DNA of 64,000 nucleotides from a virus, in the IMG/VR virus record IMGVR_UViG_3300037454_000906, positions 32,001 to 96,000 of that record; one strand, 5' to 3'. The notes under the pieces were generated by a model. That model did not search any database. It worked only from the letters and a program-made list of their open reading frames with translations, and was not told the origin of the DNA. Position numbers and translations under genes: made by a program. This document shows positions 561-50,791 of this stretch, one piece after another; within the stretch, counting starts at the first letter, position 1, and each line of letters opens with the position of its first letter.

Positions 561-642
561 CGTCGTTTCTCCTTGTTGTGTTGTGCCCGCAGGATATGCC
601 GTCGGGCCCCACCGTATCCGGTGGGTACCCCGCGCGGTCGGT

Positions 643-1125
643 CTATTTCGTAACCGCCTCGATCAGTCGCGTGGCGACAGCGATGTCCCGCATTGCCATG
701 GCGTTGAAGTCAAGTTCTTCCTTCGAATTGCTATCCGGTACGTAGGCATCCAACGCGTCCAGGATAGCGGCCTTCGGTGTCTCGCCCACCCCGACAACCC
801 TGACCGTCTTGCCTTCCGGGGGGATGACGAACGTGACGTACGCGCCATATTTCGCCTTCGGTGCCCCGGTGCCCGCTCTCTCGACGAGACGGGCATGCCT
901 GGCGAGCATTTCCTGGTATAGCGGGTGATTCATCTGCTCGACTTCCTTCAACGGCCTCACCCCCGCGCCGGAAAAGCTGTAAAATGCATTGGGGAAACAG
1001 TTCACCAGGGATTCGAGGCTGATTCCCCTTTCGGTTTCCTCCGTGTGGCGAATGAACCTTTCGGCTAGATCCGCGATGCGGTTGAGTGCGTCCGTGAGTT
1101 TCTTTACGGTGTCGATCAATGCCAT
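643..1125 (-). CDS. Hypothetical protein
   Basis: 160-aa ORF, same strand as neighbours. Confidence 0.75.
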   Translation of the reverse strand: MALIDTVKKLTDALNRIADLAERFIRHTEETERGISLESLVNCFPNAFYSFSGAGVRPLKEVEQMNHPLYQEMLARHARLVERAGTGAPKAKYGAYVTFVIPPEGKTVRVVGVGETPKAAILDALDAYVPDSNSKEELDFNAMAMRDIAVATRLIEAVTK

Positions 1126-1134
1126 GGGTTCATC

Positions 1135-1539
1135 CTAGAACTCGACTGATATGATTTGTTCGAACGGGATGAACTTGGTGTGGCTGTATCTGGGGGGTTC
1201 CCCATCCAGCTTCATCGGAAGCATCCCGAAATTGGCAATGCTGTACTTATGTCCCGCGTCATCAACCACAAGTTCGTCTTTCCCAATATCCTTGGGGTCA
1301 ACGCCCGACTGAAGCGGTTCGAGGTGGTTAAGTTTAACCGAAAGGAGCCCATTATACACATGGACTTCGTCCAGGAATACCTTCGGCTTCCCACCCACCT
1401 GGATTGTGCTAATCCCCGGGATTTCTTCGGTCACGACAATGGCACTCTGGGCGCACTTATCGCGGGGAGTGTATGTAATCAAGTAAATTCCGTGGGAATT
1501 GGCTTCATGCAGCATGTCATTGCATTCTTGCAAGTCCAT
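1135..1539 (-). CDS. Hypothetical protein
   Basis: 134 aa, GGAGG RBS, motif upstream. Confidence 0.8.
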   Translation of the reverse strand: MDLQECNDMLHEANSHGIYLITYTPRDKCAQSAIVVTEEIPGISTIQVGGKPKVFLDEVHVYNGLLSVKLNHLEPLQSGVDPKDIGKDELVVDDAGHKYSIANFGMLPMKLDGEPPRYSHTKFIPFEQIISVEF

Positions 1540-1618
1540 CTGTACCTCCTGTGTTGTTCTGTGTCCATGGTGTTACACCGGATCAAACCGGGTGCGTGAC
1601 GTGGCGTACGCGGTGCGT

Positions 1619-1858
1619 TTACTTGCCAAATTTCCACCAGATGTCTCTGGCCAGTTCGCACGCGATTGATGCGGGATATGTCTTGGCCATGATGTAACAC
1701 CCGGCCACGATGCAATCCGGTGGAACCGCGGGGGTCCCGAAAGTGGCTATGAATGCGCTCACTGCGTCAGTGAGCGACTTGGGGTCGGGTTCGTGCACTT
1801 TGATGACGAAGCTCCCGTTTTCCTCGTCCAGGGAAAGAATGTCAAGTCTGTGGTCCAT
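1619..1858 (-). CDS. Hypothetical protein
   Basis: 79 aa, GGAG RBS, motif upstream. Confidence 0.7.
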   Translation of the reverse strand: MDHRLDILSLDEENGSFVIKVHEPDPKSLTDAVSAFIATFGTPAVPPDCIVAGCYIMAKTYPASIACELARDIWWKFGK

Positions 1859-1923
1859 TTTGTTTTCTCCGCGTTACATTACCACCGGGTCCCCTGTCAC
1901 CGGGACCCGGCACTCGCGGTTGG

Positions 1924-2223
1924 CTACGAATTAGCCAGGTAATGAATCTTGGTTGCGTAGTTGTCCAGGTCTACTGTTGAATATGTCACGTTGAGACCGT
2001 TCGCCCACGAAATCAGCTTCGAGAACACAGAGGTCCCCGTGGAAATGTGATTGGTCTGTACCTGGAAGCACGGGTGGGTGGGCTTGAGGAACAGGAGTTC
2101 GGGGAACGTCTCGGTTATCTTTCCGTCAACGTTGTGACTCACGGTGGCGGTGAACTTGACCGCATGGGGATAGTCGGAGATTACTCCATAGAGCAATTCA
2201 TGTGTGTTCTTTGCCTTCTTCAT
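1924..2223 (-). CDS. Hypothetical protein (MKKAKNTHELL...)
   Basis: Start moved to the ATG after AAGGAG; motif upstream. Confidence 0.7.
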   Translation of the reverse strand: MKKAKNTHELLYGVISDYPHAVKFTATVSHNVDGKITETFPELLFLKPTHPCFQVQTNHISTGTSVFSKLISWANGLNVTYSTVDLDNYATKIHYLANS

Positions 2224-2435
2224 GTTCGGCTCCTTGTACATGTGCATACGTCGTGATCCCGGCCTCCACCGGATTCGATGGAACCGGAACACGGATGTAA
2301 TGGAATGGATGGGTCCGGGACCGCAGAGGCTCTCCCGGCATAATCTACTCGTCCGTAGTGCGACTTTCGTTAACGGTTCTGTCTGGCTCCGCGACCTAGA
2401 CTACGATTCATTCGCGGGACAACCCATCCAAGTTT

Positions 2436-2843
2436 CTATTTTGCCTTTCGGTCGCGGGTTACTTCCGCGATGAAGGGGTCAAGATATTTATCCAACTGTT
2501 CCATCACGCTGTTCAAGGCGTTATGGAAAACTCGATCGGTAGCTGCCGCCAACCTGCGCCATTCGAGGCAGTTGTCGGTGTCCTTCAATGCCGATACATT
2601 TACGCCAAACTTACCATTTCCCCCCATGTAGTGAAGGGATGCGGTAACCTTGATATTGGCCGGAATATACACCCCATGTATGCTATACATGCAGTACATA
2701 TTGCCTGGACTCTCGATATCATTTTCGATGGCCGAATCCACGGCGGGTTCACACTCGAACCGCTCACACAAAGCGGCATGGAGCTCAGCAATTTCCTGCG
2801 GAAATTTAGTCACTTTGAAATCAATCGGACCCTTGGTCGGCAT
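2436..2843 (-). CDS. Hypothetical protein
   Basis: 135 aa, follows the 2868..3446 gene. Confidence 0.7.
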   Translation of the reverse strand: MPTKGPIDFKVTKFPQEIAELHAALCERFECEPAVDSAIENDIESPGNMYCMYSIHGVYIPANIKVTASLHYMGGNGKFGVNVSALKDTDNCLEWRRLAAATDRVFHNALNSVMEQLDKYLDPFIAEVTRDRKAK

Positions 2844-2867
2844 AAAGGTTTACTCCATTTTCAGTAG

Positions 2868-3446
2868 TTATTTTTCGCAGTTATCCTCGGTGCAAAAGTT
2901 GGTGCAGAAACCATCGTGGCAGAACCCGTAGGTGTCGGAAAGCCAGTCGGCCACGTCATCCTCGTCCATGTAATACGGGACGATTACGGATCGAGGGAGG
3001 CCGCATTCTTTGTATGTCGCACCATCGGTGTCCCACTTGATGCGATATGCCTTGTGTGGCTTCGTCATAAGAAGGCCCTTGGCGTTCCTTGGGTTCTGAT
3101 TCATTTCGGTGTCCCCATCGGTGGCTTCGACGAATGGGGCACCGGACTGCTTCAGAGCCCAGATATCTTCCTGAATCTCACCGAGTTTCTTCGTGGTCAG
3201 ACACTTACCATTGTACCCGTACCACTTGTCGAAGAACGGAATAAACGCAGGGTTCGACTGTTGAACCCCGTCGGGAACATAAATCCCGCTGTAAGCCATG
3301 CTGCGCCGTGGGTAATACGTGTAGCAGAAGAAATTCAGTCTTTGTTTCTTCTTGTCAGCTTGGGTATATGATACGAATACTACACTGGAATTGTCGATTC
3401 TGAACCCGATGCAGAAATCGCCAAATTGTTTACGAATTGTACTCAT
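2868..3446 (-). CDS. Hypothetical protein
   Basis: 192 aa, AAGGAG RBS, motif upstream. Confidence 0.8.
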   Translation of the reverse strand: MSTIRKQFGDFCIGFRIDNSSVVFVSYTQADKKKQRLNFFCYTYYPRRSMAYSGIYVPDGVQQSNPAFIPFFDKWYGYNGKCLTTKKLGEIQEDIWALKQSGAPFVEATDGDTEMNQNPRNAKGLLMTKPHKAYRIKWDTDGATYKECGLPRSVIVPYYMDEDDVADWLSDTYGFCHDGFCTNFCTEDNCEK

Positions 3447-3778
3447 GGAATGCTCTCCTTGTTAATTGTTGACCATACGCTGTGTCACCGGACACCCCCG
3501 GATCGGGGACACCCGTTAAACGGCGGGTCACTTGATAAGTTCATCTATCATCAAGCGAACGGCCAGGGGGGAATACCAGGGGCACATTCGTATTCTGCGA
3601 TTCGGGTATCTGGTTGTCACTCACGACGGTTTCCCCCATCTTCCATGATGGCCGCTGTGTCTAGGTGGAAATGTATGTCATCGGGAATTGTATTCAAGCG
3701 GAAGTTCACGACGCGCTTGCTTTGCTAACGTTGGCCCCCGTCCCCATCGGAACGGACACCCCTTACGTGCATTCGGTA

Positions 3779-4420
3779 CTAGATGCGATCACGGAGACCC
3801 TTCAATATGATGTTGATTGCTCGGGCTTGTTCCTCATAGGAAGACAATTTCAAAATTTCTTCGCATGACGCTTCAAGCGGCTTGCCGTCCTTGCCAATCA
3901 CGCTCTCCCATTCATCGAAGCCCGGCATTTCCTCCGGGAGCGGTTGGAAAAATTCCTCGTTACTATCCCACTCGGAAAACTTGTTCACGGCAATCTTGAT
4001 GCGCTTGCAGTCTCCGCTGATGACAACGGCATTACCAAGGTCGCTGTAGTATTTCTGGAAACGCTTCACGTGAACGTTCTTGCCCTGGTGGTGACGTACA
4101 CAGATACTGTGAAGTTCATGGGGCCAAAACCAGTCGGGAATAGGCGAATCGCTGTACTCCACCATGTTCCCTTCCACATAATGGGCCATGGCCATCAACG
4201 CGGACATTGCGGTCCTGTAACACTCATGGCACTCATGGTCGTTCACGAAGTACACGGTGTCACCGAAGTCGTCCCGCTTGGCAACAAGGTACGTGCTGTC
4301 CCCGAGGTAGATTTCCTCGCTATTGCGCCAGTCACCGTTGACTTCCGGCTTGCCGTAGCCGAGGACGCGAATGACCTTAAGGTCCCTGGCCGTGAAATAC
4401 TTGCTATCCTTGATATCCAT
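3779..4420 (-). CDS. Hypothetical protein (MDIKDSKYF...)
   Basis: Start corrected to the ATG after the RBS; motif upstream. Confidence 0.8.
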   Translation of the reverse strand: MDIKDSKYFTARDLKVIRVLGYGKPEVNGDWRNSEEIYLGDSTYLVAKRDDFGDTVYFVNDHECHECYRTAMSALMAMAHYVEGNMVEYSDSPIPDWFWPHELHSICVRHHQGKNVHVKRFQKYYSDLGNAVVISGDCKRIKIAVNKFSEWDSNEEFFQPLPEEMPGFDEWESVIGKDGKPLEASCEEILKLSSYEEQARAINIILKGLRDRI

Positions 4421-4503
4421 GCTGCTCTCCTTGTTAAGTTCTGTCCCCAGGTTGTAATCCCGGACACCACCGGATCGGGGACCGAAACCGCACGGTATGC
4501 ACA

Positions 4504-4851
4504 TCACTCGATGTTCACGTATTCCTTCGTCTCGACAAAGGCATCCTCGATGCCCTGGTCAAGCGCGTCCACGGCCTTCGCCACGGAGCGTAGCACAGTT
4601 TCGAGGTCATCCGATTCCTTGAACACCTTGCTGATGATAAGGTTGTTCTCGCCTTCCTTCCATCCCGGAGGGACCTCGTCGTGCATGATGTTGAAGTGCG
4701 GGACACAACTCTGGTAAGACTTGCCCAAGAACACCTTGGCAACGATGTGCATGTAGTTGCTCACGTAGGTGAGTCTGTCACCGACGTTGTTCTTGTTGAA
4801 GTGATAGCCCTCCTCGGAGAGCTTCTCAATGAGTTCGTCTGAAAATTCCAT
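4504..4851 (-). CDS. Hypothetical protein
   Basis: 115-aa ORF. Confidence 0.75.
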   Translation of the reverse strand: MEFSDELIEKLSEEGYHFNKNNVGDRLTYVSNYMHIVAKVFLGKSYQSCVPHFNIMHDEVPPGWKEGENNLIISKVFKESDDLETVLRSVAKAVDALDQGIEDAFVETKEYVNIE

Positions 4852-4861
4852 CGCAACCCCC

Positions 4862-5122
4862 TTAACTTACCTTCGGGTACACCTTGTTGATGACTGCCTT
4901 GATCGAGGTGGGTACGTTATTGGAATACACGTTCACCGTGACATAATTGTCTTCCTTCCATGACGCGAAGGTGAGGCCGACTGCGATAATGCCGCTGTCA
5001 TAGTTCACCTCGCTGATGTAAAGGCGCGGTTCCGCAACACGAAGCACGGTTTCCAAGAGTTCGAGCTGTTCCTTGCTGAACTCGGCCATCGCGAGGTCGT
5101 TCTTGGTCTGAATAATCTTCAT
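4862..5122 (-). CDS. Hypothetical protein
   Basis: 86 aa, GAGGAG RBS, motif upstream. Confidence 0.75.
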   Translation of the reverse strand: MKIIQTKNDLAMAEFSKEQLELLETVLRVAEPRLYISEVNYDSGIIAVGLTFASWKEDNYVTVNVYSNNVPTSIKAVINKVYPKVS

Positions 5123-5176
5123 GGGATTCCTCCTCGTTAAGTTCTGTCCATACGCTGTGCGCCCGGAGTCAACCCG

Positions 5177-5597
5177 CTACGGTCGGCTCCCTGCACGGTC
5201 GATCTGTGCACCCGTTTCCAGGGCAAGCGCGACGGCGAGGTCACGCGCCTGCTTTTCCGCATTCGCTATGACCTTCGGCACATCATCCAGGATAGCCACG
5301 TGTTCCGTGGTCTTGCCGAGGTGGTGCACCGTCTCGTCCTTTATCTGCTCGAAGATGCTCACGGTAAACTTAAGGGGCTCATTCGTGGCCCTGATGTTCA
5401 ATCCGTAGTAAACGCCCTTTATGGCGCAGAACATCCTGGACAATCCGAAAAAAACGACGCGGGGTGTCCTTGGTGTACCCGTAGCCCCATACGCTTTCCG
5501 GCGTGGTTGCATTCGGGTTCCGCGGGTGTGCCTTTACGTACTCCTGTATCTTCTCGAACACTTCGGGTGTAAACGTTGCAGTTGTGCGCATGGGCAC
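5177..5597 (-). pseudogene. Probable single gene split by a frameshift at a T7 (A7 on +) run
   Basis: ORF 5379..5597 (MPMRTTATF...DTPRRFF) continues plausibly as ORF 5177..5512 (...FFGLSRMFC...) across the A7 run at 5448-5454. Confidence 0.45.
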
Positions 5598-5600
5598 CTC

Positions 5601-5969
5601 CTATACGGACATGTAATAGTTCAGAATCTCGGCGATACGGGAATCGTTGTCGAGGTCCACGACATCGGTGAGAAGTTGCGTGGGGCACCTGGCGAGACAC
5701 AGGTGCGAGCCTTCATTGTCCACAACGACTTTGCACTTTACCTTTGTCCCGGTCTCCTTGCGGTTGACCGTGAAGTTAATAGTGATTGTGCCGGACTCGG
5801 GTTCTATCTCGATGATGCCCGGGTACCATGCCAGTTCGTACTTGGAGTTCTTGATTATGGCATTGGCGACGATAGCCTGTTGGACGCGCTTCCCCGTGTT
5901 CAACATGGTCGCGCAGTCATCCGCATTGAACGCGATGATGTTCGGCTTGATTGATTCCAGTTTACCCAT
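5601..5969 (-). CDS. Hypothetical protein
   Basis: 122 aa, GAGGAG RBS, motif upstream. Confidence 0.8.
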   Translation of the reverse strand: MGKLESIKPNIIAFNADDCATMLNTGKRVQQAIVANAIIKNSKYELAWYPGIIEIEPESGTITINFTVNRKETGTKVKCKVVVDNEGSHLCLARCPTQLLTDVVDLDNDSRIAEILNYYMSV

Positions 5970-6049
5970 AAGTGTTCTCCTCGTTGATTTCTGCGCTTAC
6001 GCTGGGACACCGGGGCACACCGGATCTGGCGCGCCCGGAACATGGTAGG

Positions 6050-6280
6050 TCAGGGAAGCGGGCCGCCATGCAGCCAGTCGTTGTATTTGTCGGCCAAGCC
6101 TACCGTAAGTTTCAGTTCGGGCAGCACGCCGCCGTATTGCTGCCAGGATTCGTATAGCGGCTCGATGTAGACCTTGTTGCCGCTCGTCATCGTGACTTTC
6201 ACCTTCCTGCGGGAAGGTTGGTTCACGAAAAGCAGCTCGACTTTCTTTATCTTGCTGTCTTCGGGTCGTTTGGGACGCAT
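6050..6280 (-). CDS. Hypothetical protein
   Basis: 76 aa, GAGGAG RBS. Confidence 0.7.
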   Translation of the reverse strand: MRPKRPEDSKIKKVELLFVNQPSRRKVKVTMTSGNKVYIEPLYESWQQYGGVLPELKLTVGLADKYNDWLHGGPLP

Positions 6281-6294
6281 TCGTTCTCTCCTCG

Positions 6295-6678
6295 TTAACG
6301 GAGTTCCGGGGCAAAGACGCTTAGCTTCTTCACCTCATGCTGATTCTTGTCCTTGCATTCGTCAAGGAAGAACTCCATGATATCCTTGACATCCTTGGGG
6401 TCGCACTTGCCCGTGCCGGGACGAGTGATGTCGTGGTAAGATTCCTTCAGCTCTATGTGGAAGAACCTCTCATGCGTTTCCATGAATATGCCTTCCACCC
6501 AAGAGCGGATATACAACCTGTTCTCGGGGAAGTTGCGGTTCCAGTACAGGATGACGGGGAACCAACATTTCTCGTCGGGATGATATTCCTGCCGGAGAAC
6601 ATATACATTTTCCCAGTTCTTCTTGGCCTTCTTGGGGCCATTGGTGTCCATGATGGTAAAATTCGGTTTCTGGGCCAT
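6295..6678 (-). CDS. Hypothetical protein, paralog of 7834..8247
   Basis: Shares W(E/K)NVY(V/A)LRQEY, WFP(V/I)I, WNR, SWVE/CWVE, (T/S)RPGT(G/D)KCDP and QEVKKL motifs with 7834..8247. Confidence 0.8.
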   Translation of the reverse strand: MAQKPNFTIMDTNGPKKAKKNWENVYVLRQEYHPDEKCWFPVILYWNRNFPENRLYIRSWVEGIFMETHERFFHIELKESYHDITRPGTGKCDPKDVKDIMEFFLDECKDKNQHEVKKLSVFAPELR

Positions 6679-6757
6679 TACGGTCTCCTTTATACTTTCC
6701 GCGAATACGTTCTGCCCCCAGGTTCCCCGGGATCGGGGACCCGCTGTACATGGTTGG

Positions 6758-9036: not shown

Positions 9037-9975
9037 TTACTTCTCGATCCCGAGGTCGTGCATAACACAGTAGGATGCGTTGTTTAGCTGTTGGCTATAC
9101 GCGAACACGCCACGGATTCCGGTCTCCAACGCTTGCAGGTCGCTCTCGCCGCTGTAAACCAACTGGACCAACTGCCCGTCAGTACCAAGGATGTCGAACA
9201 CGGCGTAGCCTCCCGCCTCCTCGATGTCGCGGATTAGATCGATGCCAGGGTTGTTCCCCAAAAGGTCCTTGCGTGTACAATGGGTCTGGATTTCCGTGAT
9301 GGGGCTGCCCTTTATGGTGTTGCAAATCCTGTCGTAAAGTTCCTTGCTCACCTTGCTCACCCCGTTCGAGGGGCCACCAGACCTGGTGCCGACATTCTGG
9401 ATATCCCAAAAATTTTTTACAAAATTTCGGATTTTGTGCTTGAAATAGGCGGTTCCGTCAATCTTCGTCCGATTGCACTTGGCGACCTGTTCACCATCCT
9501 TGAAAATCGTGAACCCGAGCGTTTCATCATCCACATGGACACAGAACACCGCGTCATACTTCTTGTCACCATTGGACACAAGCTCGCCCTTGATTTCGAT
9601 TTCCGTTCCATTCGGGTCATTGACACGCATTTCCTCGAATTTGAACATGCCTCCGAGCGCATCCTTGATACCATCGCGGTAAAGGCAGAAGTAATTTTCA
9701 AGGATGAACGAGGGCAACGATGCCTTCGACGGGATGTCGATACAGTTCCCGTCGTGCATGAGTTCCATGACGTGCTCGCCGTTCGCCACGACGAAACGCA
9801 GCGTGAACACCTTCCCGAGGAACTTGAACTCCGTGTCGTGCCACGGTGCGCTAGGGTCATCCGAGCGTTCCTGGTTGGTCACCTTCGCGCCCGGTACCAT
9901 GATGCCCAGGACTTGCTCGGCGAGTGCGTCCACGCCCTTCAATCCCTCCAGGTAGCCGAAAATCTTCTCAATCAT
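9037..9975 (-). CDS. Hypothetical protein (MIEKIFGYLEG...)
   Basis: Start after AAAGGAG; ~312 aa; motif upstream. Confidence 0.8.
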   Translation of the reverse strand: MIEKIFGYLEGLKGVDALAEQVLGIMVPGAKVTNQERSDDPSAPWHDTEFKFLGKVFTLRFVVANGEHVMELMHDGNCIDIPSKASLPSFILENYFCLYRDGIKDALGGMFKFEEMRVNDPNGTEIEIKGELVSNGDKKYDAVFCVHVDDETLGFTIFKDGEQVAKCNRTKIDGTAYFKHKIRNFVKNFWDIQNVGTRSGGPSNGVSKVSKELYDRICNTIKGSPITEIQTHCTRKDLLGNNPGIDLIRDIEEAGGYAVFDILGTDGQLVQLVYSGESDLQALETGIRGVFAYSQQLNNASYCVMHDLGIEK

Positions 9976-10057
9976 GATGGTATCTCCTTTTTTGGTTTCT
10001 GCCCCTACGTTGGATCCCCGGACCCAACCGGACCAGGGACACGCGGGGCACGGTACG

Positions 10058-10474
10058 CTAACACTCGACCGTGTTTCCTTCCGCGACGAGGACACGCTTA
10101 TAGTAGTTCCGTACCAGTTGCATCACATCGGGCCATTGGGCATCGGGAATCCTATTCGCGTCAGGTTCATCGACGATGACGAAAAGGGTCGCGCTGTCAT
10201 TCGCATCGCCCTCGTCGGCCTTGATGTTCGCTTCAAGAAGGACGGAGTACACATCGCGGTTTATCCCCACCAGGGTCCCGCATTTCGCCATGGCGCGGAA
10301 CACCGTGGTCACATATTTGTTGACCGACCCGGAACTGGGTTTCGGGCCGACCGGGTGAACCCCCGCGAGAGCATCATAGAACGGGCAGCACATCCCGAAG
10401 TTCATGAGGGAATCGGCGACATCGGTACAAAGCGACCTGGCATTGTCGCGGGTGATGATAAGTTTGATTTTCAT
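10058..10474 (-). CDS. Hypothetical protein
   Basis: 138 aa, GGAGG RBS. Confidence 0.75.
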   Translation of the reverse strand: MKIKLIITRDNARSLCTDVADSLMNFGMCCPFYDALAGVHPVGPKPSSGSVNKYVTTVFRAMAKCGTLVGINRDVYSVLLEANIKADEGDANDSATLFVIVDEPDANRIPDAQWPDVMQLVRNYYKRVLVAEGNTVEC

Positions 10475-31071: not shown

Positions 31072-31103
31072 AAAAAGGGGCGCCTGCTCACGCAGGCGCC
31101 CCC
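31072..31103 (-). terminator. Intrinsic terminator
   Basis: GGGGCGCCTGC-tcac-GCAGGCGCCCC followed by TTTTT on the minus strand. Confidence 0.8.
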
Positions 31104-34029: not shown

Positions 34030-34195
34030 TCTTGTAACTCCTTTCGTTGAACGTGCCCACGTTGTGCAGCCGGATCCCACCACCCGCGGGGCACAGGGCA
34101 TACGGTGGCGCCGATTCCAAAAATTAAAAATTAAGTGCCCAAGTGGGCACTAATGGAACATGATGGACTAACAGTCGGAATCTTCTTCGTCCTGG

Positions 34196-37329: not shown

Positions 37330-37471
37330 GCTTGACTCCTTTTATTGAACGTGCCCACGATGTATCCCCGGCCCCCACCAAGCGTGGGGCACCTGATACA
37401 TGGTGGGACGTGGCCAACACTAGTAAAAATTAATGCCCCTTTCGGGGCAAGGTTAGTGTTCAGATTCCCTG

Positions 37472-37879: not shown

Positions 37880-38532
37880 GTTGTACTCCTTTTGTTGAAC
37901 GTGTCCACGATGTATCTCCGGCCCCCACCGATCGTGGGGCGCCTGATACATGGTGGTGCAGCATGTCAAAATTGAAAAAAAGTGGCAGGGGATTTCTCCC
38001 CTGCCGTGTTCATCGGAGTCAGAAAATCAAACATTGTTGATTACTTCAATCTTGTCCTCGGGGAGCGATTCAAGGTAGGTCTCTATGCAATGCTTGACCT
38101 CGCACCACAGGAGTCCGTTTCCGTCCTTCCATTCCTCCCAAATCAATCCGTCAAGGGCCTTTTTGATGCCATACTCTTCGCGGCAGGAGAACCCCATCTC
38201 GCGGAACTGATCAAGGTCATGCATCTCGTCCATCACGGACACCAGCTCGCGCGCCCCGAAGTCATATCCGCCATACCTCCCTGTGGTGAGGATGATGGAA
38301 CTAAACGGAGAGGTCATGAGGATGCCATGATGGTCGGACACGTCATCCTGCTCGGAACTGTCGCTCGCGAAGTCCACATTTTTAACTCCTTTCGTTGAAC
38401 ATGCCCACGATGCGTCACCGGGGTCCACCGGGTGCGATGGGCCATGCACACGGATGGACAAAAGGTGTCCCCGCAAGAGGAGGCTCCGTCTCTAATGTGC
38501 CTGGGAGTTGTTCCTCCCCGTGCGGGGCAGTA

Positions 38533-39105: not shown

Positions 39106-39393
39106 CCGTTAACTGAAACCTACCTAAATCTACCACTAGGACAGACCTACGTGATTTCCTGCCTTGCCCATTGCTGAGTAGGCCGTAACGGCACTTAATC
39201 AACCGCATCTACGCGATATACCTAATATGCATCAAGCAACACGGCTGACTTGCCTAGTCCTACTCCATTACTGAAGAGCCTTAACACGGTCGGCATATCA
39301 AACTAGGCATTGTTAAATATACATTATTTCCATTAGCATATTTAAGTATATTTAGTTAAATGTTGTTAACATTTTCGTTAACTGCTAACAACC
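39106..39393 (-). mobile_element. IS607-type mini-element copy 2
   Basis: Inverted, slightly diverged copy of 14517..14803; flanks TG|GG...GG|T. Confidence 0.85.
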
Positions 39394-40809: not shown

Positions 40810-40957
40810 AGTTGACTCCTTGTTAGTTGTTTTCTGAACATGCCCACGATGTGCCCCCGGATCCCACCGCAAGTGGGACATCTGACACGCGGTGGGGCGC
40901 GAGGTTGAAATTGAAAAATGTTGGCAGGGGTTTCCCCCTGCCGTGTTCATTCGGAGT

Positions 40958-41464: not shown

Positions 41465-41588
41465 GGTTGACTCCTTTTGTTGAACATGCCCACGATGTGT
41501 CACCGGGCCCCACTGCACGCGGGAAACCGGACACACGGTGGCCATAATAGGCCGCATGGGAAATGGTGCTCGGCTGAGCACCTATATC

Positions 41589-42104
41589 CTATTTGCAGCA
41601 GACCTTGATACATTCGGCAAGCGTGGCAACCGCAATACATTCGGTGCCGCACGGCTTGTTCTTCTCGCATTCCTTGGGAATAATCAAGGTCTTGCCTTTG
41701 CATGTCTTACTCGTCACATCATTATAGACAACACTAGCAAACTCGCTAGGGCGGTTCAGACGCCCGTCAAGGCTCAAATTGCCGAAGAACGTATACTTGT
41801 CCGCGTCAAGGGTCACTTCGCCCGTGGCAGCAAGCAAGCCCATGGCGACCGCCAAATCAAGTCCATCGGTGGCCGATGAACGATACAAGCCACGGACATT
41901 CATGGTTGTGTTGAAACCCGTGATGACCTTCCCCGTTTCACGGACGGCACATCTCACCCTGTCAAGGACACCGCAGTCCTTCGGAAGGCCGAACTGGGTC
42001 AATGACGGGGTGCCGCTTGCGGAACTGACCTCAATCTCAACGGGGCTGACTTGGAAATAATTTGCGTCACAATGGTGTGCGATGGTGATAATTCTTGCGA
42101 ACAT
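41589..42104 (-). CDS. ComM/YifB (Mg-chelatase-like) N-terminal domain only
   Basis: VEIEVSSASGTPSLTQFGLP...DRVRCAV...GLDLAVAMGLLAATG...FFGNLSLDGRL...LIIPKE matches the ComM N-domain pattern; no AAA+ domain. Confidence 0.75.
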   Translation of the reverse strand: MFARIITIAHHCDANYFQVSPVEIEVSSASGTPSLTQFGLPKDCGVLDRVRCAVRETGKVITGFNTTMNVRGLYRSSATDGLDLAVAMGLLAATGEVTLDADKYTFFGNLSLDGRLNRPSEFASVVYNDVTSKTCKGKTLIIPKECEKNKPCGTECIAVATLAECIKVCCK

Positions 42105-42253
42105 GTTTAACTCCTTTGCTGAACACTCCCACGATGTGTCACCGGGTGCCACCGATCGTGGCACACCGGACACACGGTGGAAACAATGGATGCAAGTTAA
42201 AAAATTTAGTGCCCAAGCGGGCACTAATTGTAAAATTAAATTATCGTCCGACC

Positions 42254-42778: not shown

Positions 42779-42900
42779 AGCTGAACTCCTTTTTCTGAAC
42801 ATGCCCACGATGTTCCACCGGATCCCACCGCGCGCGGGGCACCGAATCCATGGTGGGAATGAAAATAAAAAATTGAAATTCGGGCTTTCGCCCGATTTCA

Positions 42901-45036: not shown

Positions 45037-45222
45037 GGTTGTATCCTTTTGTTGAACACACCCACGCTGTGCAGCCGGACCCCACCCGCCGCGGACCCAC
45101 GGGAACATGGTGGAACCGGTCATCCTTCCGGCACCGGGTACATGGTGGAACCCGGATAATTTCCGTTACAGAAAAGGGGCAAGGGCGAACCCCTGCCCCC
45201 CGTTCATCGGAGTCAAAAGCCC

Positions 45223-45546
45223 CTAGTCGGTCATGCGGTAGAAGTAGTCCGCTGCGTCCCCTTCAAGCATGTCGCACGCATACGTGTCCGCCGTGCGCCA
45301 AAGTTCGTCATAGAGTTTCGCATACTCAGGGTTTTTCTCGTGCCATTCCCAAATCTTGTGGTTGAGGGCGATGACGAGGTGGGTGAGGTAGCGGTAGTCA
45401 CGTTTCCATTCGTTGAACGCCCGGTTGAACGTGTCACGGATGGCCTTTACCCCGAACTTATCAGCAATGGTGAAGTCGCTGGGGAACGTGGTGGAGAACC
45501 CCTCCTCGTTCAACTTTTCCGAAATTTTCTTTTCCTTGGTTTCCAT
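45223..45546 (-). CDS. Hypothetical phage protein (METKEKK...)
   Basis: Start after AAAGGAGG; motif upstream. Confidence 0.8.
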   Translation of the reverse strand: METKEKKISEKLNEEGFSTTFPSDFTIADKFGVKAIRDTFNRAFNEWKRDYRYLTHLVIALNHKIWEWHEKNPEYAKLYDELWRTADTYACDMLEGDAADYFYRMTD

Positions 45547-45715
45547 GTAGCCTCCTTTTTCTGAACATGCCCACGGTGTATCCCCGGACCCAACCGATCG
45601 CGGGGATCCGGATACACGGTTGGCACCAGGTAAAAAATTTGGGGGAATGCCCACCCAAAATATTCGGGGAACTTCTATATCGTATTGGATGCCGTTTTGA
45701 AAGCCCCGTTAAACC

Positions 45716-46312
45716 TTAAATCCCCTGCATTCCCTGTTCAAAAATTTCGGGATAGAGCCTACAAATTGAAGTATATCCGCTCCGACCGATGACGATGTGG
45801 TCAAGCACAGGAAGTTTCAAAATTTTTCCCGATGCGCATAGCACTCGGGTCAATGTAATATCCTGCTCGGATGGCGCAGTGTCACCGCTCGGGTGATTAT
45901 GGGCAAATATGACACTCACTGCATTGTCAAGTATAGCAAAACGGAACGATTCCCGTGGGGCGCATTTGGTTTCGTTCACGAGCCCCTTGGTCACGATGTG
46001 CTTGCCGATGATATGGTTGTGTGAATCAAGGGTCACCACAACCATGTTTTCCTGCCGTTCCCACTTCAACCACGATACGTGATTGACGATTGTGGAAGGG
46101 TCGGTGACGGATATTGCCCTAGTCCCAGCAAGATACTCCGCAGAACTCTCCATGACCATGAGCAGAGTGTTGGCAACGTTCATGCCGACACCACGGAACT
46201 TCACAAGGTCGTTCGCCTTTGCGTAGGGGTTCTCGGCGAGATAGTCGGCAACCCTTATACCCGTGTATTCGTCGCCTATTATGCGACCGAAAATCTGTGC
46301 CAAACTTGTCAT
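45716..46312 (-). CDS. radC: RadC-like JAB-domain protein
   Basis: E...VVVTLDSHNHII...G.VNET...PRE.FRFAILDNAVSVIFAHNHPSGDTAPSEQDITLT...LDHIVIG (JAB H-N-H-P-S...D motif). Confidence 0.9.
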   Translation of the reverse strand: MTSLAQIFGRIIGDEYTGIRVADYLAENPYAKANDLVKFRGVGMNVANTLLMVMESSAEYLAGTRAISVTDPSTIVNHVSWLKWERQENMVVVTLDSHNHIIGKHIVTKGLVNETKCAPRESFRFAILDNAVSVIFAHNHPSGDTAPSEQDITLTRVLCASGKILKLPVLDHIVIGRSGYTSICRLYPEIFEQGMQGI

Positions 46313-46461
46313 GGCGAACCTCTTTGAATTGAACATGCCCACGCTGTTCCGCCAGGGCCAACTGCACGCGGGGATCCGGATACACGGTTGGCGCGGCTCC
46401 CCCGAGGAAAAAAGTTTGGTGCCCGTGTGGGCACCTAGTTCACTCCCATGTCCCGCACGGC

Positions 46462-46779
46462 TTACGGAGTCACCAACTTCGCCCTGTCCTTGAACCAATC
46501 GGTCGCCACAATCTTGGCATAGTCGGGCTGCTTGGGGTTTGCCTTGAACGCATCGTTCACGGCTTTCATCATGGTGTCGTTGCGGAAATAGAGGACCTTG
46601 CCCTCGGCCTCCACATTGATGAACGGAGACCATCCATCCTCCACTTGGTAACGGGCGTCCTTGGCTTCCTCCTCGGTAGAAAATTCCACCTCGTAGTGCT
46701 TGGTCTCCTTGATGGGCTTGGCCGACTCGGCCATCATCGCAGCCATCGCCAATTCGCCAATAACATTGATTCCCGACAT
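46462..46779 (-). CDS. Hypothetical protein (MSGINVI...)
   Basis: Start after AAGGAG; motif upstream. Confidence 0.7.
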   Translation of the reverse strand: MSGINVIGELAMAAMMAESAKPIKETKHYEVEFSTEEEAKDARYQVEDGWSPFINVEAEGKVLYFRNDTMMKAVNDAFKANPKQPDYAKIVATDWFKDRAKLVTP

Positions 46780-46916
46780 TGCAAACTCCTTTTGAACATG
46801 CCCACGATGTATCCTCGGCCCCAACCGCCCGCGGGAATCCGGATGCACGGTTGGCGCCGATGATAAAATTTTTAAAGGAAGGTGCCCAAGTGGGCACCTT
46901 TTTTCGTGGCTACAAG

Positions 46917-47324
46917 TTAAAGGTTAAAGTTGATTTCGTGTTTCAGTTCGTCGGGGATTTCGTCTTTGAGGATTTTGTCGTCATCCCACACGGAGTCGGG
47001 AATGTAGCCGTCCCCGTCAGGTTCGGCGAACCCGTTCTTGATGGCGTCACGCAGAACGCCCATGTCGCCCTCGTCAATCTTGCGGAGCTCGGCCACGGAG
47101 AGCTGAACGCTCATGCCGACACGCATCCAAATCTTGTGCTTCTTGTTTTCGTCAATTTCCTTTTTCTCGGGTTCGGGACATTCCCCGCTTTCGGAATTTT
47201 CTTCCGCTTCGCCGAAATCATCGTCGGACGGGGCGGGATTTTCAAACCCGCAGTCCATACAGAAAAACTGTCCGTTGTCTTCCGAGATGTTCTCGCTGCC
47301 GCAATTCCAACACTTCTGTGCCAT
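46917..47324 (-). CDS. N-terminal Zn-ribbon, acidic protein
   Basis: MAQKCWNCG...FFCMDCG; AAAGGAG RBS; motif upstream. Confidence 0.75.
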   Translation of the reverse strand: MAQKCWNCGSENISEDNGQFFCMDCGFENPAPSDDDFGEAEENSESGECPEPEKKEIDENKKHKIWMRVGMSVQLSVAELRKIDEGDMGVLRDAIKNGFAEPDGDGYIPDSVWDDDKILKDEIPDELKHEINFNL

Positions 47325-47467
47325 ATTGTACTCCTTTCGTTGAATGTTCCCACGATGTTCCACCGGACCCCACCGCATGCTCCACCCAGGGAACACGGTG
47401 GACGCCCGGCCACCCCGAGGTACATGGGCGCCCCGATGCAGTATCGGGGCGCCCCGTTTCCTCCCTC

Positions 47468-47719
47468 TTAGCCCTGTACCAAAGACCAGCTGGGATGCTT
47501 GACCATTCGGCCCGACTTGTCAAGTCCGTGAATCCACTTCTTGACGATGCGCCACCCGATAAGGCGATAATCTTCCCGTTCGGTGCGGTACCAGATGCTG
47601 CCGTTGTTGTAGTCAACGAACACGCCGAGGAACGCACCGCCCGCACGCTTGGCGGCTTCCCATGCCTTTTGGCACAGATTGCGCAACTGACCCATGACCT
47701 TGTAGACGAATTTTTTCAT
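47468..47719 (-). CDS. Hypothetical protein (MKKFVYK...)
   Basis: Start after AAAGGAG; motif upstream. Confidence 0.7.
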   Translation of the reverse strand: MKKFVYKVMGQLRNLCQKAWEAAKRAGGAFLGVFVDYNNGSIWYRTEREDYRLIGWRIVKKWIHGLDKSGRMVKHPSWSLVQG

Positions 47720-47845
47720 TTCCTGAACTCCTTTGGTTGAACATGCCCACGTTGTATCCCCGGAGTCCACCGGATCAGTTACCCCGGATACCCGGTGGGC
47801 GCCCGTGAACCCGTGGGGAAAGGGGACGCGCCCCGTCCCCCTTGG

Positions 47846-48331
47846 CTAGTCAATAAGATATTTCCAGTCTCGGATTATGCCCTCAACGTCCACCTCGGCA
47901 CCTGTGGCTACATCAACGAACACCCCGTGCGCGGGACACCAAAGGACACTATGGCGATGGTTCCCCAAGTAGTCAACCCCCACCACCTTTGCCGCGTACT
48001 GGGCTCCGTTGTGGCGCAGACCCATCTTCACGGGGGTGTACTGGAAGATGTGACCCTCTTCCATGAGGCGCCTGACGAGCTCCGTGAGGCCGTCCTCGGG
48101 CAGGTTCACCTCAACCACTTCCCAGTAATGGATGCACCCGCGGTAGTCAAGGCTGACTGCCTCGTCGGTGACCTCGGGATCCGCCTCGATTCCTTCCCGT
48201 TCCTTGAATTCAAGGGCTAAGCGGAGAGCCTCCCCCTTGGCCAAGTCAAACGTTTCGCAAGGTTCGCCCTGTTGGCCGGTGATGCTTTCATGCGAATCGC
48301 ACCTGTTGACAACGATGTATTTGATTGACAT
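47846..48331 (-). CDS. Hypothetical protein (MSIKYIV...)
   Basis: Start after AAAGGAG; motif upstream. Confidence 0.75.
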   Translation of the reverse strand: MSIKYIVVNRCDSHESITGQQGEPCETFDLAKGEALRLALEFKEREGIEADPEVTDEAVSLDYRGCIHYWEVVEVNLPEDGLTELVRRLMEEGHIFQYTPVKMGLRHNGAQYAAKVVGVDYLGNHRHSVLWCPAHGVFVDVATGAEVDVEGIIRDWKYLID

Positions 48332-48458
48332 ATGGCTCCTTTTCTGAACGTGCCCACGGTGCGCCGCCGGACCCCACCGGATCCGGTTCACGGGGAACAC
48401 GGTTGGCGCGGTTCCCCAGAGGCGAAAAGTTTGGTGCCCATGTGGGCACCTAGTTCAC

Positions 48459-48665
48459 TCATGCTGCCTTCTTCATGGAATCATATTCCGCACGGAGTTC
48501 ACGGAGTCTGGCGTCACGGTACCCAATGAACCTCGTCCACTGCTCGTGCCAACGATGGGACCTGCCCACATCCCGCATGTTCGCCATGTGGTCAAAGATG
48601 CCGTCGCAGATGCGGCAAAGGGTCATGTACTTCTTGTCCGAATGGACGCATTCCTTGAAATTCAT
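48459..48665 (-). CDS. Small hypothetical protein
   Basis: 68-aa ORF. Confidence 0.6.
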   Translation of the reverse strand: MNFKECVHSDKKYMTLCRICDGIFDHMANMRDVGRSHRWHEQWTRFIGYRDARLRELRAEYDSMKKAA

Positions 48666-48688
48666 AGCGTACCACTTTAAAAAATTTT

Positions 48689-48874
48689 TTACATGCCGCT
48701 CTCAATGGCCATGGAAAAGTCAACGCAGTCCTTGCAGCCGTGATACCTGCTCAGCGCGGCCTCGGTCTGCTCGGGACCCATCTCATCAAAATATTTCAGA
48801 AGACGCCCGTAGAACCCCTGAGCACGGGAAAGGGCCCTTATCCACCCGAGTATGGTCTTGGTCTTTTCGCTCAT
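48689..48874 (-). CDS. Small protein, paralog of 36673..36873
   Basis: Shared motifs with 36673..36873; AAAGGAG RBS; motif upstream. Confidence 0.7.
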   Translation of the reverse strand: MSEKTKTILGWIRALSRAQGFYGRLLKYFDEMGPEQTEAALSRYHGCKDCVDFSMAIESGM

Positions 48875-49396
48875 GTTGAAACTCCTTTTCTGAACACGCC
48901 CACGGTGCACCGCCGGACCCCACCGGATCCGCTACGCCGGGCACACGGTGGCGCCGCACGCGTCACGATACAGGAACGGGCGGTTCCCGAGGGGTATCGG
49001 GAACCGCCCGTCATTGCTTGGCTCGGGCTTCGGATGCCAGTTTCGCCCTGCGGTCGCCTATTCATATCGTCGTAAGTTGGACATCCCGACCCGACGACCT
49101 TGCCACATATCCGCTACTTGCCCACGGGGCGCACCACGCACGGGAATCCCGCTGCGCTGCGCTTGGCAGCGTTCCTGTCCGCAACCGACTTCTTGTAGTG
49201 GGAAGAGAAAAGGTTGAGACCGGCAGTGGTGACCGAGTAAACGCCATACTTTTTCATTTTGTAACCTCCGTTGTTTGAACATGCCCACGTTGCGCCCCCG
49301 GACCCAACCGCCCGCGGGACATCCCGGACACGGTGGGGCGCGCCGTGTCCCTTGAAGCATGGTGCCCATATGGGCACCCCGTCTCCCCCCGTGCAA

Positions 49397-49780
49397 TTAC
49401 TTCTTCATTTCGTCCCCCCTGCTGAGCTCGTTTAGCACGAGCGTGTTCATGTCCGTCTCGGGCGCCTCCAAGAGCGAGAGGACCCTGTGCAGAGTGTGGT
49501 TCGGCATGTAGCCGAATTCGAATGCACGCTTTGAGCCGTCTTTGTCATCGCACACGATTACGGGATTCATGTCGGCTCCAGCGGCCACATGGGTTATCGT
49601 GAACTTCAGGGGAGGCATATATCCCTTGATGCTGAACTTGACGGGTTTCGGGAGAGGCACCAGCTTTTTACGCTGATCGGCCTCGCTGCATTCGGGGAAC
49701 ATTGCCCCCGCCTTCGCCATGATGCTCTTGTAGAGGTGCTCCCTGTACATTACCGCAGTGAATACGCCCATAGATGCCAT
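49397..49780 (-). CDS. Hypothetical protein
   Basis: Start after AAAGGAG; motif upstream. Confidence 0.7.
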   Translation of the reverse strand: MASMGVFTAVMYREHLYKSIMAKAGAMFPECSEADQRKKLVPLPKPVKFSIKGYMPPLKFTITHVAAGADMNPVIVCDDKDGSKRAFEFGYMPNHTLHRVLSLLEAPETDMNTLVLNELSRGDEMKK

Positions 49781-50791
49781 GATGTAACTCCTTTTGATGA
49801 ACATGCCCACGATGCGACGCCAGGTCCCACCAAGGGCGGGACTGTGGTCACATGGTGGCCCCCAAGCAAAACACTGACCCGCAGGAGGCCGTAGGGCTAT
49901 CGCATACCAAATCCGGTGCCCCCATGTAGCATTCCGCCTCCATGCTTAACTCGTCCTCCATGAGGTCCGTGTCAAGTTCGCATCGTGCATCTAGTTCGGT
50001 AACCATGCGTGCCTCCTCGGGTTGAACGGGCCCACGCTGTGCCGCCGGACCCCACCGACCGCGGGACACCGGACGCACGGCGGGTGCAAGTTCCTGGGGA
50101 CCGAAAGGCCGTATAGGGAACATGGGGCACAATTGAGCACCATGGTAGCGTCCTCGGTTCCCCCGGTGTCCCCAGGGTCCCGCGGGGTGACCCCCGCGCC
50201 CACGGTGTCCCACCGGCGGGCGCGCCCGCCGGGACGCGAGGGGGACATGGCCGGGAAAAAATCAAAATCAAAACCTGGGGGTCACATTTTGGAAAATGGC
50301 GATCTCCGCTTTGCCCCGATTTCAAAAAATTTACCCGGTAGGGGGGTACGGGGGTTTCCGGCGGCCCTTTGTAAACATTTGTAAACATTTTCCGGGGGTA
50401 ACTGGCCCCAAAAAATCAAAAACTTTTTTAACCCGGTACCGGGTACCCTAAGTTTGAATGAATGATGTCTAATTAACGAAAAAAAATTTTTGGGGGGTGG
50501 GGGTCTGCATATTTTTATGAATAATATAAGCTGTATTATAGATACAGTGGGGGTTATCAACAGCTAACCTAAAATCTACCTAAATTTACTCAATTTTACC
50601 GAAATCGGCAAGTATTTTAGTGCATTTTAGGTTGAAAATCGACATAAAATTTTGTACATTGTTATAAACTTGATATATAACGGTTCGATGAATTAGTCGT
50701 GTTCTTCGTCGAGCTATAGTGGAAACCATTTCGATGGCTCGTTTGGAATTGAACACGACAATAAGTTCCTTACGAGCCATTTCTGTATTGT

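Follow-up and report, generated by a model that had tools for sequence, protein, structure and literature searches.

A Structured, Single-Orientation Repeat in a Rumen Phage Genome

The analysis of a 64,000-nucleotide stretch of a rumen phage genome (bases 32001-96000 of the IMG/VR record IMGVR_UViG_3300037454_000906; hereafter the window) revealed a rigid, hairpin-forming motif of which 64 copies, all on the minus strand, head short units of mutually unrelated genes. We tentatively read this motif as a cassette head akin to the promoter-stem-loop cassettes (PeSLs) of T4-type phages, which would unite the start signal of each unit, a folded element, and the homology for cassette shuffling, and we give this reading slightly less than an even chance of being correct. 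The source record comprises 253,117 bp and is rated 99% complete. Matches to T4-type markers in Pfam and PHROG (a gp15-like tail sheath stabilizer, an S77 prohead protease, gp30.3, PhoH, and a baseplate wedge protein) place the phage, as judged from its sequence, as a distant T4-type jumbo myovirus.

A repeat search uncovered overlapping families of 45-110-nt direct repeats, in a single orientation, over the first 50 kb of the window. From 33 copies aligned on the minus strand, which is the gene strand, and with the structure taken from single-copy folds, we built a covariance model (R1) and searched the window with filters off. This search detected 64 minus-strand copies between 577 and 50257, 62 of them with E<=0.0013, together with three weak plus-strand echoes, each lying on top of a minus-strand copy; past window 50.3 kb there was no R1 match. 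Over the whole genome, R1 found 72 copies, all on the minus strand and confined to a 72-kb block (genome 9.5-82.2 kb), and zero in the remaining 170 kb. The boxes alone, searched as CCGTGT-N38-CGTGGG with <=2 mismatches, gave 60 matches in the window versus 8.95 +/- 2.98 in shuffles, and the same search with 34 N as spacing returned matches at chance level only, which indicates that the 38-nt spacing is truly rigid. An initial annotation, made from the letters of the window, had described about 65 copies of fixed geometry between 583 and 50082, with boxes 38 nt apart in the six copies that it counted, and had proposed a whole-genome scan; the count and the spacing hold, and so does the location, except that the array goes on outside the window, down to genome 9.5 kb.

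That annotation had not recognized the motif from any described family, and our searches agree: Rfam gave 0 matches at the gathering score over the window, a tRNA search of the region found none, and no paper describing the motif was found in the literature. Among 185,579 reference prokaryote genomes the motif was absent as a family, with only single matches in unrelated metagenome-assembled genomes. These single matches, the one orientation, and the fixed distance to the ATG rule out a host REP-like/MITE family. The copies in the window are listed below from the first of the array onward, with R1 scores.

577..50257, minus, whole array of 64 co-oriented hairpins, the proposed cassette heads (R1 and box search)
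50188..50257, minus, degenerate hairpin copy, first of the array, 12.1 bits
50020..50087, minus, hairpin copy, 70.6 bits
49795..49862, minus, hairpin copy, 67 bits
49273..49340, minus, hairpin copy, 69.9 bits
48888..48955, minus, hairpin copy, 71.5 bits
48342..48409, minus, hairpin copy, 71.3 bits
47735..47802, minus, hairpin copy, 66.8 bits
47338..47405, minus, hairpin copy, 64 bits
46790..46857, minus, hairpin copy, 66.6 bits
46327..46394, minus, hairpin copy heading a RadC-domain gene (Pfam RadC), 52.6 bits
45559..45626, minus, hairpin copy, 77.2 bits
45050..45117, minus, hairpin copy, 66.5 bits
44480..44547, minus, hairpin copy, 49.5 bits
44001..44068, minus, hairpin copy, 69.9 bits
43466..43533, minus, hairpin copy, 69.7 bits
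42793..42860, minus, hairpin copy heading a SpoVG-like gene, 70.2 bits
42117..42184, minus, best-scoring hairpin copy, the match extending into the A/C-rich leader, then AAGGAG and ATG at 42104, 78 bits, fold -36.2 kcal/mol
41478..41545, minus, hairpin copy, 73.9 bits
40832..40899, minus, hairpin copy, 72.8 bits
40171..40238, minus, hairpin copy, 70.5 bits
38988..39055, minus, hairpin copy, 66.7 bits
38393..38460, minus, hairpin copy, 58.4 bits
37893..37960, minus, hairpin copy, 61.5 bits
37343..37410, minus, hairpin copy, 73.9 bits
36537..36604, minus, hairpin copy, 59.8 bits
35607..35674, minus, hairpin copy, 57.2 bits
34766..34833, minus, hairpin copy, 28.5 bits
34045..34112, minus, hairpin copy, 69.4 bits
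33031..33098, minus, hairpin copy, 50.5 bits
32278..32345, minus, hairpin copy without an open reading frame (ORF) directly behind, 32 bits
31668..31735, minus, hairpin copy, 53.8 bits
30966..31033, minus, hairpin copy, 69.3 bits
30266..30333, minus, hairpin copy, 76.8 bits
29462..29529, minus, hairpin copy, 43.1 bits
28388..28455, minus, hairpin copy, 70.7 bits
27612..27679, minus, hairpin copy, 66.7 bits
26685..26752, minus, hairpin copy, 61.4 bits
25702..25769, minus, hairpin copy, 53.9 bits
25022..25089, minus, hairpin copy, 60.3 bits
24134..24201, minus, hairpin copy, 55.4 bits
23251..23318, minus, hairpin copy, 56.7 bits
21149..21214, minus, hairpin copy, 49.8 bits
20293..20360, minus, hairpin copy, 56.9 bits
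18817..18884, minus, hairpin copy, 61.3 bits
18069..18136, minus, hairpin copy, 59.5 bits
15602..15671, minus, hairpin copy, 32.4 bits
14353..14420, minus, hairpin copy without an ORF directly behind, degenerate second copy just upstream, 44 bits
13411..13473, minus, weak hairpin copy, 23.3 bits
12841..12908, minus, weak hairpin copy, 26.8 bits
11257..11324, minus, hairpin copy, foot abutted by an upstream TAG, 44 bits
9993..10060, minus, hairpin copy, 34.3 bits
8971..9038, minus, hairpin copy, 41.8 bits
8653..8720, minus, hairpin copy, 29 bits
8266..8333, minus, hairpin copy, 48.9 bits
7770..7835, minus, hairpin copy, 37.5 bits
7178..7245, minus, hairpin copy, 48.5 bits
6693..6760, minus, degenerate hairpin copy, 12.3 bits
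5985..6052, minus, hairpin copy, 28.8 bits
5138..5205, minus, hairpin copy, 38.2 bits
4435..4502, minus, hairpin copy, 45.7 bits
3463..3530, minus, hairpin copy, 36 bits
2234..2301, minus, hairpin copy, 49 bits
1555..1618, minus, weak hairpin copy, 19.3 bits
577..644, minus, weak hairpin copy, 20.5 bits

Fold and Covariation of the Hairpin

The consensus, drawn from 118 copies of this genome and its relatives, reads on the gene strand C-ACCGTGT, a variable stretch, CC, the loop, G-GTGG, three variable bases, CCCGG-G, a further variable stretch, and ACA-n-CGT-GGG. It folds as a single bulged hairpin of about 22 bp and about 50 nt, behind which lies an A/C-rich leader of about 15 nt, commonly CATGTTCAAC AAAAGGAG, and then AAGGAG; the distance from the hairpin foot to the ATG is 22-25 nt in most copies. 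The basal stem, in which ACCGTGT is paired with ACAnCGT, encloses a C.C mismatch whose two Cs are both 100% conserved, the adjoining pair being mostly G.T. The middle stem varies yet stays paired, with counts of AU 31, GC 27, and UA 21 at pair 14/63 and of CG 51 and UA 29 at pair 15/62. In the internal loop region the 3'-side CCCGG.G is nearly invariant, its nominal partners pairing in only 55-60% of copies, and the apical stem contains another covarying pair (24/53; GC 45, CG 32).

This structure was taken from single-sequence folds, which range from -20 to -36 kcal/mol for single copies, and was then checked with slid and shuffled controls; RNAalifold on a plain MAFFT alignment gave no consensus fold. 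Overall, 74% of cells were paired, compared with 35-47% when the partner was slid by 1-3 columns, and the covariation lay above that of all 500 shuffles. Together with the compensatory pairs, these values bear out the imperfect, bulged hairpin that had been noticed at first. The alignments used for the pairing test are almost gap-free, and hence were not bent to fit the structure. The information content is higher in the 3' arm (32.7 bits) than in the 5' arm (23.6 bits), the excess sitting in CCCGG.G and GGTGG, whose partners vary.

The leaders fall into two subfamilies, one with GGGG(C/T)CA...AACAAGGAGA at window 0-28 kb and one with GGGCATGTTCAACAAAAGGAG at 28-50 kb. Heads lying near each other also resemble each other more than heads lying far apart, and this greater likeness among neighbors suggests a local homogenization of heads by recombination.

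Units, Genes, and Terminators behind the Hairpins

The hairpins head units of one to three genes (one gene in 32 units, two genes in 29), as counted from rough gene calls made in this analysis, which agree with the calls on an independent contig. Second genes follow 7-28 nt behind the first and have their own Shine-Dalgarno (SD) sequence and no hairpin, so that the copy "one per gene" of the initial annotation has to be restated as a motif that heads units of this size. About 30 copies, most of them at window 0-28 kb, have the preceding gene's stop codon right against the hairpin foot (TAG-CC, TGA-CC). The unit ahead of the hairpin closes with a good intrinsic terminator and then a T-rich tract in some 16-23 of the 72 copies, most of which lie at 28-50 kb; the order of terminator, T-rich tract, and motif reported earlier is thus found in these copies and not in the 30 or so with abutting stop codons. 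The spacer from terminator to hairpin measures 15-35 nt and is not conserved, and the top-scoring hairpin copies are mostly those behind terminators. The terminators are exemplified by the following.

42206..42227, minus, intrinsic terminator (GC-rich stem and T run) ending the previous unit about 20 nt before the best-scoring hairpin
31076-31103, further intrinsic terminator
34134-34151, further intrinsic terminator
37434-37449, further intrinsic terminator
37984-38005, further intrinsic terminator
40923-40942, further intrinsic terminator
42880-42895, further intrinsic terminator
46418-46435, further intrinsic terminator

The terminators form a repeat family of their own, GTGCCCA-N3-4-TGGGCAC, with at least eight copies (window 34134-34151, 42206-42227, 46418-46435, and others), and their arms look as if the arms of the motif's middle and apical stems had been fused.

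Among the approximately 72 genes directly behind hairpins there is one paralogous pair only, and about five of 100 proteins of the block have Pfam matches (RadC, SpoVG, a ChlI-like domain, a zinc ribbon, and a TnpB-like nuclease). At the level of sequence, then, the genes behind the motif are unrelated orphans. Since the cassette genes are mutually unrelated, the repeat is no by-product of gene duplication, and the single paralogous pair rules out tandem duplication as its source.

Cassette Gain, Loss, and Replacement among Relatives

Exact-pattern scans located the motif in one further IMG/VR record (a 253-kb fragment in which the contig end truncates the array) and in four rumen metagenome contigs. 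The related contigs together supply 57 further copies, confirmed by the model; matches to looser patterns in IMG/VR were at chance level and were not confirmed by the covariance model. About one-third of the relatives' cassette genes have homologs in this phage (31-75% identity), in a different order. One protein of the block, when looked up in other assemblies, led to a single further contig with the same gene order.

Three events between related phages could be mapped at base level. Compared with L027, L028 has one cassette more, and the single head of L027 is chimeric, with the switch inside the 3' arm. L027 in turn has one cassette more than L030, with the switch at the boundary of foot and leader. 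Between L028 and L030 one ORF is replaced, the homology stopping just after the SD and resuming at the stop codon and terminator; a terminator of the GTGCCCA-N3-4-TGGGCAC family forms the right-hand junction of this swap. The three junctions, the only ones mapped, thus lie at three different positions, and breakpoints at differing places in the motif fit homologous exchange between repeats rather than a site-specific recombinase. The comparison of synteny suggested in the initial annotation therefore places gain, loss, and swap breakpoints inside the motif or leader, and its view of a modular cassette system of the PeSL kind is sustained by these junctions, the unrelated orphan genes, and the T4-type markers.

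More distant phages, whose sigma factors are 49-57% identical, have diverged hairpins at orthologous sites, in which the basal stem is kept and the middle stem is re-paired with other sequence. In two contigs of this wider group, a diverged hairpin stands directly before the FtsK gene.

Transcription and Recombination Genes of the Phage

A phage-encoded RNA polymerase, which the initial annotation had offered as a possible reader of the motif, did not emerge from the searches. The genome has no match to the T7-like polymerase family PF00940 (a search run without a positive control) and none to an RNA polymerase beta-subunit domain, and no large ORF has a DFDGD-type motif. Of the large ORFs, one of 2728 aa scores as a PHROG tail protein and one of 845 aa as a baseplate wedge subunit, and three proteins of 1380-1706 aa received no assignment. 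A phage sigma factor, which it had also proposed to look for, is present: a single sigma-70-family gene (256 aa, regions 2 and 4; genome 7451-8218, minus strand) lies in the last hairpin-headed unit, behind an FtsK/SpoIIIE-like ATPase (genome 8305-9504, minus strand). This FtsK-sigma module is conserved in the wider phage group (L039, L041, L042, and L043), which is the group with 49-57% sigma identity mentioned above.

The sigma70 promoters noted earlier after 52 kb proved real and different from the motif. They belong to an ordinary, sharply conserved promoter class, GTTGCCA-N15-TGCTACATTT, also written TTGCCA-N17-(TG)nTACATT. It has about 13 minus-strand copies, and that strand has none from genome 28.6 to 92 kb. 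This class could be a host-sigma early class or a target of the phage sigma. In several of its copies the ATG stands just 7-9 nt past the -10 box, which looks like leaderless mRNAs. At 30.5-50.4 kb, 12 sigma70-like sites were found versus 13.1 expected, none of them at a constant position within the motif. The first unit is directly preceded, on the side of the plus-strand TnpB-like gene, by an AT-rich stretch of 450 nt with GATTTT repeats, which, read by eye, could be an entry promoter if the units are co-transcribed, or a control region or origin.

60464-60491, minus, ordinary promoter class
60935-60963, minus, ordinary promoter class
62082-62110, minus, ordinary promoter class
62697-62725, minus, ordinary promoter class
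Genome 12491, 15956, 28613, 97696, 99265, 122084, 159060, 165803, 174740, and 182305, minus, ordinary promoter class
50260..50700, minus, AT-rich non-coding stretch with a TATAAT box, directly upstream of the first unit (read by eye)

Two candidate promoter elements within the motif were discarded. A sigma54-type reading (GG-N10-GC in GGCAC-ATCGT-GGGCA) was rejected by eye, as GGCAC is a variable, covarying stem, and CATGTT of the leader was ruled out as a -10 box by the second leader subfamily, which is without it.

As for recombinases, PF00589 (tyrosine recombinase) is absent from the genome, the control search being positive in 14 of 14 genomes. Outside the array there are a single Y1 transposase and a single resolvase, and both appear, from the co-occurring OrfB/TnpB families, to belong to insertion sequence (IS) elements. 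An IS200/IS605 TnpA at 186.5 kb was considered as a partner of the hairpin and found unsupported, with no model match nearby.

A Proposed Cassette Head and the Competing Explanations

Under the cassette-head reading, the head would have four parts, namely the rigid hairpin of about 50 nt, the A/C-rich leader of about 15 nt, AAGGAG, and the start codon. The mRNA of each unit would begin at the head, at a start signal overlapping the gene-proximal arm and foot of the hairpin, and the reader would be the host RNA polymerase with a phage factor, the candidate for which is the sigma-70-family protein that the phage encodes. With the ATG at a fixed distance, every orphan gene would have an equally short, unstructured, and strongly translated leader. 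The hairpin would be selected as a folded single strand, forming in transcripts that read in from the upstream unit and acting there as an attenuator, 3' stabilizer, or processing site, and it may also aid recognition of the start signal. Because the head of 70-90 nt, often together with a terminator, is the only sequence that the units share, homologous recombination between heads would delete, insert, and swap whole cassettes. The promoter component is a plausible proposal. It is favored by about 54 kb that contain 64 hairpins and a dozen or more good terminators with no excess of sigma70-like sites and no ordinary promoter in view, by the lack of anything conserved between terminator and hairpin, by the better conservation of the gene-proximal arm, by the fixed leader and ATG distance, and by the precedent of PeSLs and of the HF2 repeats, intergenic motifs that likewise recur and that proved to be promoters (PMC2839356, PMC4122927, PMC8707807).

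Several observations weigh against this reading. No -35/-10 pair with sigma-type spacing is legible in the conserved boxes, the motif is GC-rich, and no A/T-rich, -10-like element is common to both leader subfamilies. Conservation is strongest in the boxes that make up the basal stem, whose two halves the duplex keeps 38 nt apart and the fold brings together, which argues that the folded form is what is conserved. The superior conservation of hairpins behind terminators is hard to explain by a role in read-through RNA alone. The sigma gene itself lies in a hairpin-headed unit and would therefore need another promoter to start, and the phage sigma might equally serve the TTGCCA...TACATT class. 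As for the strand on which the fold acts, sense RNA is more stable than antisense (-27.3 vs -26.0 kcal/mol, p=3e-4), which is a weak strand test; with DNA parameters the two do not differ, and G.U versus A.C counts are 218:153 overall and 15:23 at the covarying pairs. These strand-of-function tests are too weak to choose between RNA and DNA.

The main rival is a purely RNA-level element, an explanation that we judge to be probably not the right one. Here transcription of the block would start at a few promoters farther upstream, or else at weak -10-like boxes within the T-rich tracts, and a specific protein would bind the basal stem, with its C.C mismatch, and the internal loop of the hairpin in the mRNA. 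This protein might cut the hairpin at its foot, in the manner of Cas6/Csy4- or RNase III-type processing, so that the unit gains a defined 5' end and the one before it keeps the hairpin as 3' protection; bound 15 nt ahead of the SD, it might turn translation down or up; or, with the hairpin as a nut-like antitermination site, it might let the polymerase pass the terminator of the unit. The compensatory changes around an invariant mismatch, the rigid geometry with boxes that adjoin only in the folded form, the slightly greater stability of the sense RNA, and the hairpins of distant relatives, which stay paired at orthologous sites with different sequences, all point in this direction, as do the fixed SD distance, the stop codons abutting the foot in about 30 copies, and the failure to see a sigma-type box pair. 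Sources of transcription can also be named, namely the AT-rich region with its TATAAT box before the first unit and the TAnnnT-like hexamers that some T-rich tracts hold 7-25 nt before the hairpin. On the other hand, a dozen or more good intrinsic terminators stand immediately ahead of the best copies, and the intervals contain no conserved promoter, so that an RNA-level model needs antitermination, terminator-blind transcription, or unrecognized promoters. Moreover, no candidate for a hairpin nuclease or an RNA-binding regulator was found among the Pfam matches listed (25 of 37 families in one scan), the second genes of units go without a hairpin of their own, and the wobble statistics at the covarying pairs do not favor the sense strand. 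A related proposal, that the hairpin is the site of a dedicated phage factor reading folded nucleic acid (a hairpin-specific endoribonuclease, a translational regulator, or a short-range antiterminator), strikes us as unlikely, though well short of far-fetched.

Placing the fold in DNA instead, the motif could be a hairpin promoter of the kind used by the N4 virion polymerase, extruded with the help of supercoiling and AT-rich flanks and used by a specialized polymerase that would read conserved bases of the folded DNA and start just past the foot. Such a promoter would account both for the need to restart transcription after terminators and for the conservation of the fold, and the mixture of conserved bases with variable bases that need only to pair recalls the N4 early promoters (PMC4496689); the foot-to-leader distance is also fixed, and T-rich flanks precede many copies. 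We nevertheless regard it as improbable, mainly because no polymerase was found: the PF00940 search, made without a positive control, and the beta-subunit search gave no match, no large ORF has the DFDGD-type motif, and the 2728-aa and 845-aa ORFs are scored as tail and baseplate wedge proteins. In addition, a bulged hairpin of about 22 bp stands against stems of 5-7 bp, and 72 copies over 72 kb against three at the genome end, and the wobble pairs of the apical stem would be C.A mismatches on the template strand. Finally, the initial annotation had raised an integron-like site, and this or another single-stranded DNA site for site-specific recombination, serving mainly cassette capture and excision, would be in keeping with an imperfect hairpin with unpaired conserved bases, with a one-orientation array of unrelated, promoterless-looking genes, and with the cassette-sized indels in relatives. 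Yet the genome has no tyrosine recombinase, its only Y1 transposase and only resolvase appear to be IS-borne and lie elsewhere, the motif has a rigid length instead of a variable center and no GTTRRRY-type core, the site keeps a fixed distance to SD and ATG with a conserved leader, and the three junctions lie at three positions, as homologous exchange predicts. We consider this last explanation very hard to credit.

Comparison with Known Phage Elements

The PeSL/PmSL elements of T4-type phages are the closest comparison. PeSLs combine a promoter, a stem-loop, often inside the promoter, and an SD; a genome has about 50 of them, placed ahead of orphan genes, and indels arise through them (Arbiol et al. 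2010, PMC2839356; Comeau et al. 2014, PMC4122927). The motif shares with them an arrangement of tens of intergenic modules, each running from an upstream stop codon, often through an AT-rich tract, to stem-loop, SD, and start codon. As with PeSLs, these modules stand before orphan genes in hyperplastic regions of a T4-like genome, and the indel and replacement junctions between related phages fall in the module (L027/L028, L027/L030, and L028/L030). The stem-loop itself, with SD and start codon behind it, is here much larger and better conserved. In contrast to PeSLs, the sigma70-like -35/N17/-10 early promoter, a defining PeSL feature, is absent, and in place of their short stem of a G run and a C run there is a bulged hairpin of 22 bp that is rigid, conserved in sequence, and marked by an invariant mismatch and compensatory changes. 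Separate canonical terminators before many copies, the fixed ATG distance, and the single contiguous 72-kb block set the motif further apart. As part of the cassette-head reading, and with the same slightly-below-even confidence, we suggest that the motif may be a lineage-specific counterpart of the T4-type PeSL cassettes.

N4 virion RNA polymerase promoters number three, have a stem of 5-7 bp and a 3-nt loop, and need the T7-like polymerase of the virion (PMC4496689). Like them, the motif mixes conserved bases with bases that only have to pair, which implies a reader of the folded form, and transcription would start right behind the hairpin. The N4 hairpins differ in being short, centered at -11, and present in few copies at the first-injected end, compared with 72 copies of about 22 bp here. 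The ESAS elements of Cluster K mycobacteriophages occur in 11-19 copies per genome, with a spacer of 4-13 bp and departures that do not support pairing (PMC3203893). These start-associated sequences (SAS/ESAS) and the motif are alike as conserved, one-orientation repeats fused to the SD, within a few bases of the start codon in unrelated families of non-structural genes, and both have an imperfect inverted repeat upstream; the compensated pairing, rigid spacing, and 72 copies found here depart from the published SAS/ESAS definition (PMC3203893).

Intergenic repeats of the halovirus HF2 have been shown to be promoters (PMC8707807). They too form classes of repeats, tens of bases long, between the genes of a myovirus, and relatives share their sequence and position, but they are archaeal, AT-rich promoter motifs without a hairpin. 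The RNase III hairpins between T7 genes comprise about ten sites with no invariant boxes and are passed by a terminator-insensitive polymerase. As in the RNase III/T7 and Cas6/Csy4 systems, the hairpins described here are intercistronic, span about two helical turns with an internal loop, and would stay on the upstream 3' end; no nuclease candidate was found for this comparison among the Pfam matches listed. Integron attC sites differ from the motif in their IntI-type tyrosine recombinase, their GTTRRRY core with a variable center, and their single fixed crossover, none of which was found here.

CRISPR Arrays and Other Neighboring Elements

Two CRISPR arrays lie in the genome. The window array (55513-56009; 36-nt repeat, eight copies) adjoins an 894-aa ORF (56346-59030) without a Pfam match, and a 578-aa TnpB-like protein with a Cas12f1-like TNB domain is encoded on the plus strand at window 50792-52528. 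The second array, at genome 27834-28410 (L002 about 9834-10410), has nine copies of the 36-nt repeat GTTGTAGTCACCATGCGACCCAGTGGGGATGCTATC and lies beside a 426-aa TnpB-like gene (L002:10591-11868, minus strand) headed by the hairpin copy at genome 29890-29957. A link of the motif to these arrays was ruled out, as neither repeat matches the model and six spacers extracted from the window array are AT-rich, unlike the motif. A 195-nt duplicate with 95% identity is shared by window 39140-39334, inside the hairpin array, and 56061-56255, in the interval between the CRISPR array and the 894-aa gene.

Implications for Orphan-Gene Control in Jumbo Phages

Jumbo phages carry long stretches of orphan genes, many of which probably function in host takeover or anti-defense, and little is known, model phages aside, about how such genes come to be expressed and exchanged. 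In the phage described here, a single rigid, structured signal would control about 70 units, including those of a TnpB-like CRISPR-associated nuclease, a RadC-domain gene, and the sigma factor, and the same signal is the place of cassette gain, loss, and swap in relatives. As a promoter, the motif would set out the specificity of a new phage sigma or cofactor; as an RNA site, it would point to a new regulator or nuclease that binds hairpins, possibly useful as an insulator part. Should a dedicated factor for the folded site exist, one protein would switch, process, or silence about 70 orphan-gene cassettes together. Nature would then offer an analog of the synthetic operons insulated by Csy4, and a way of controlling early genes globally that is not described for phages. 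Under either reading, the covariance model offers a means of detecting accessory-gene arrays of this lineage in metagenomes.

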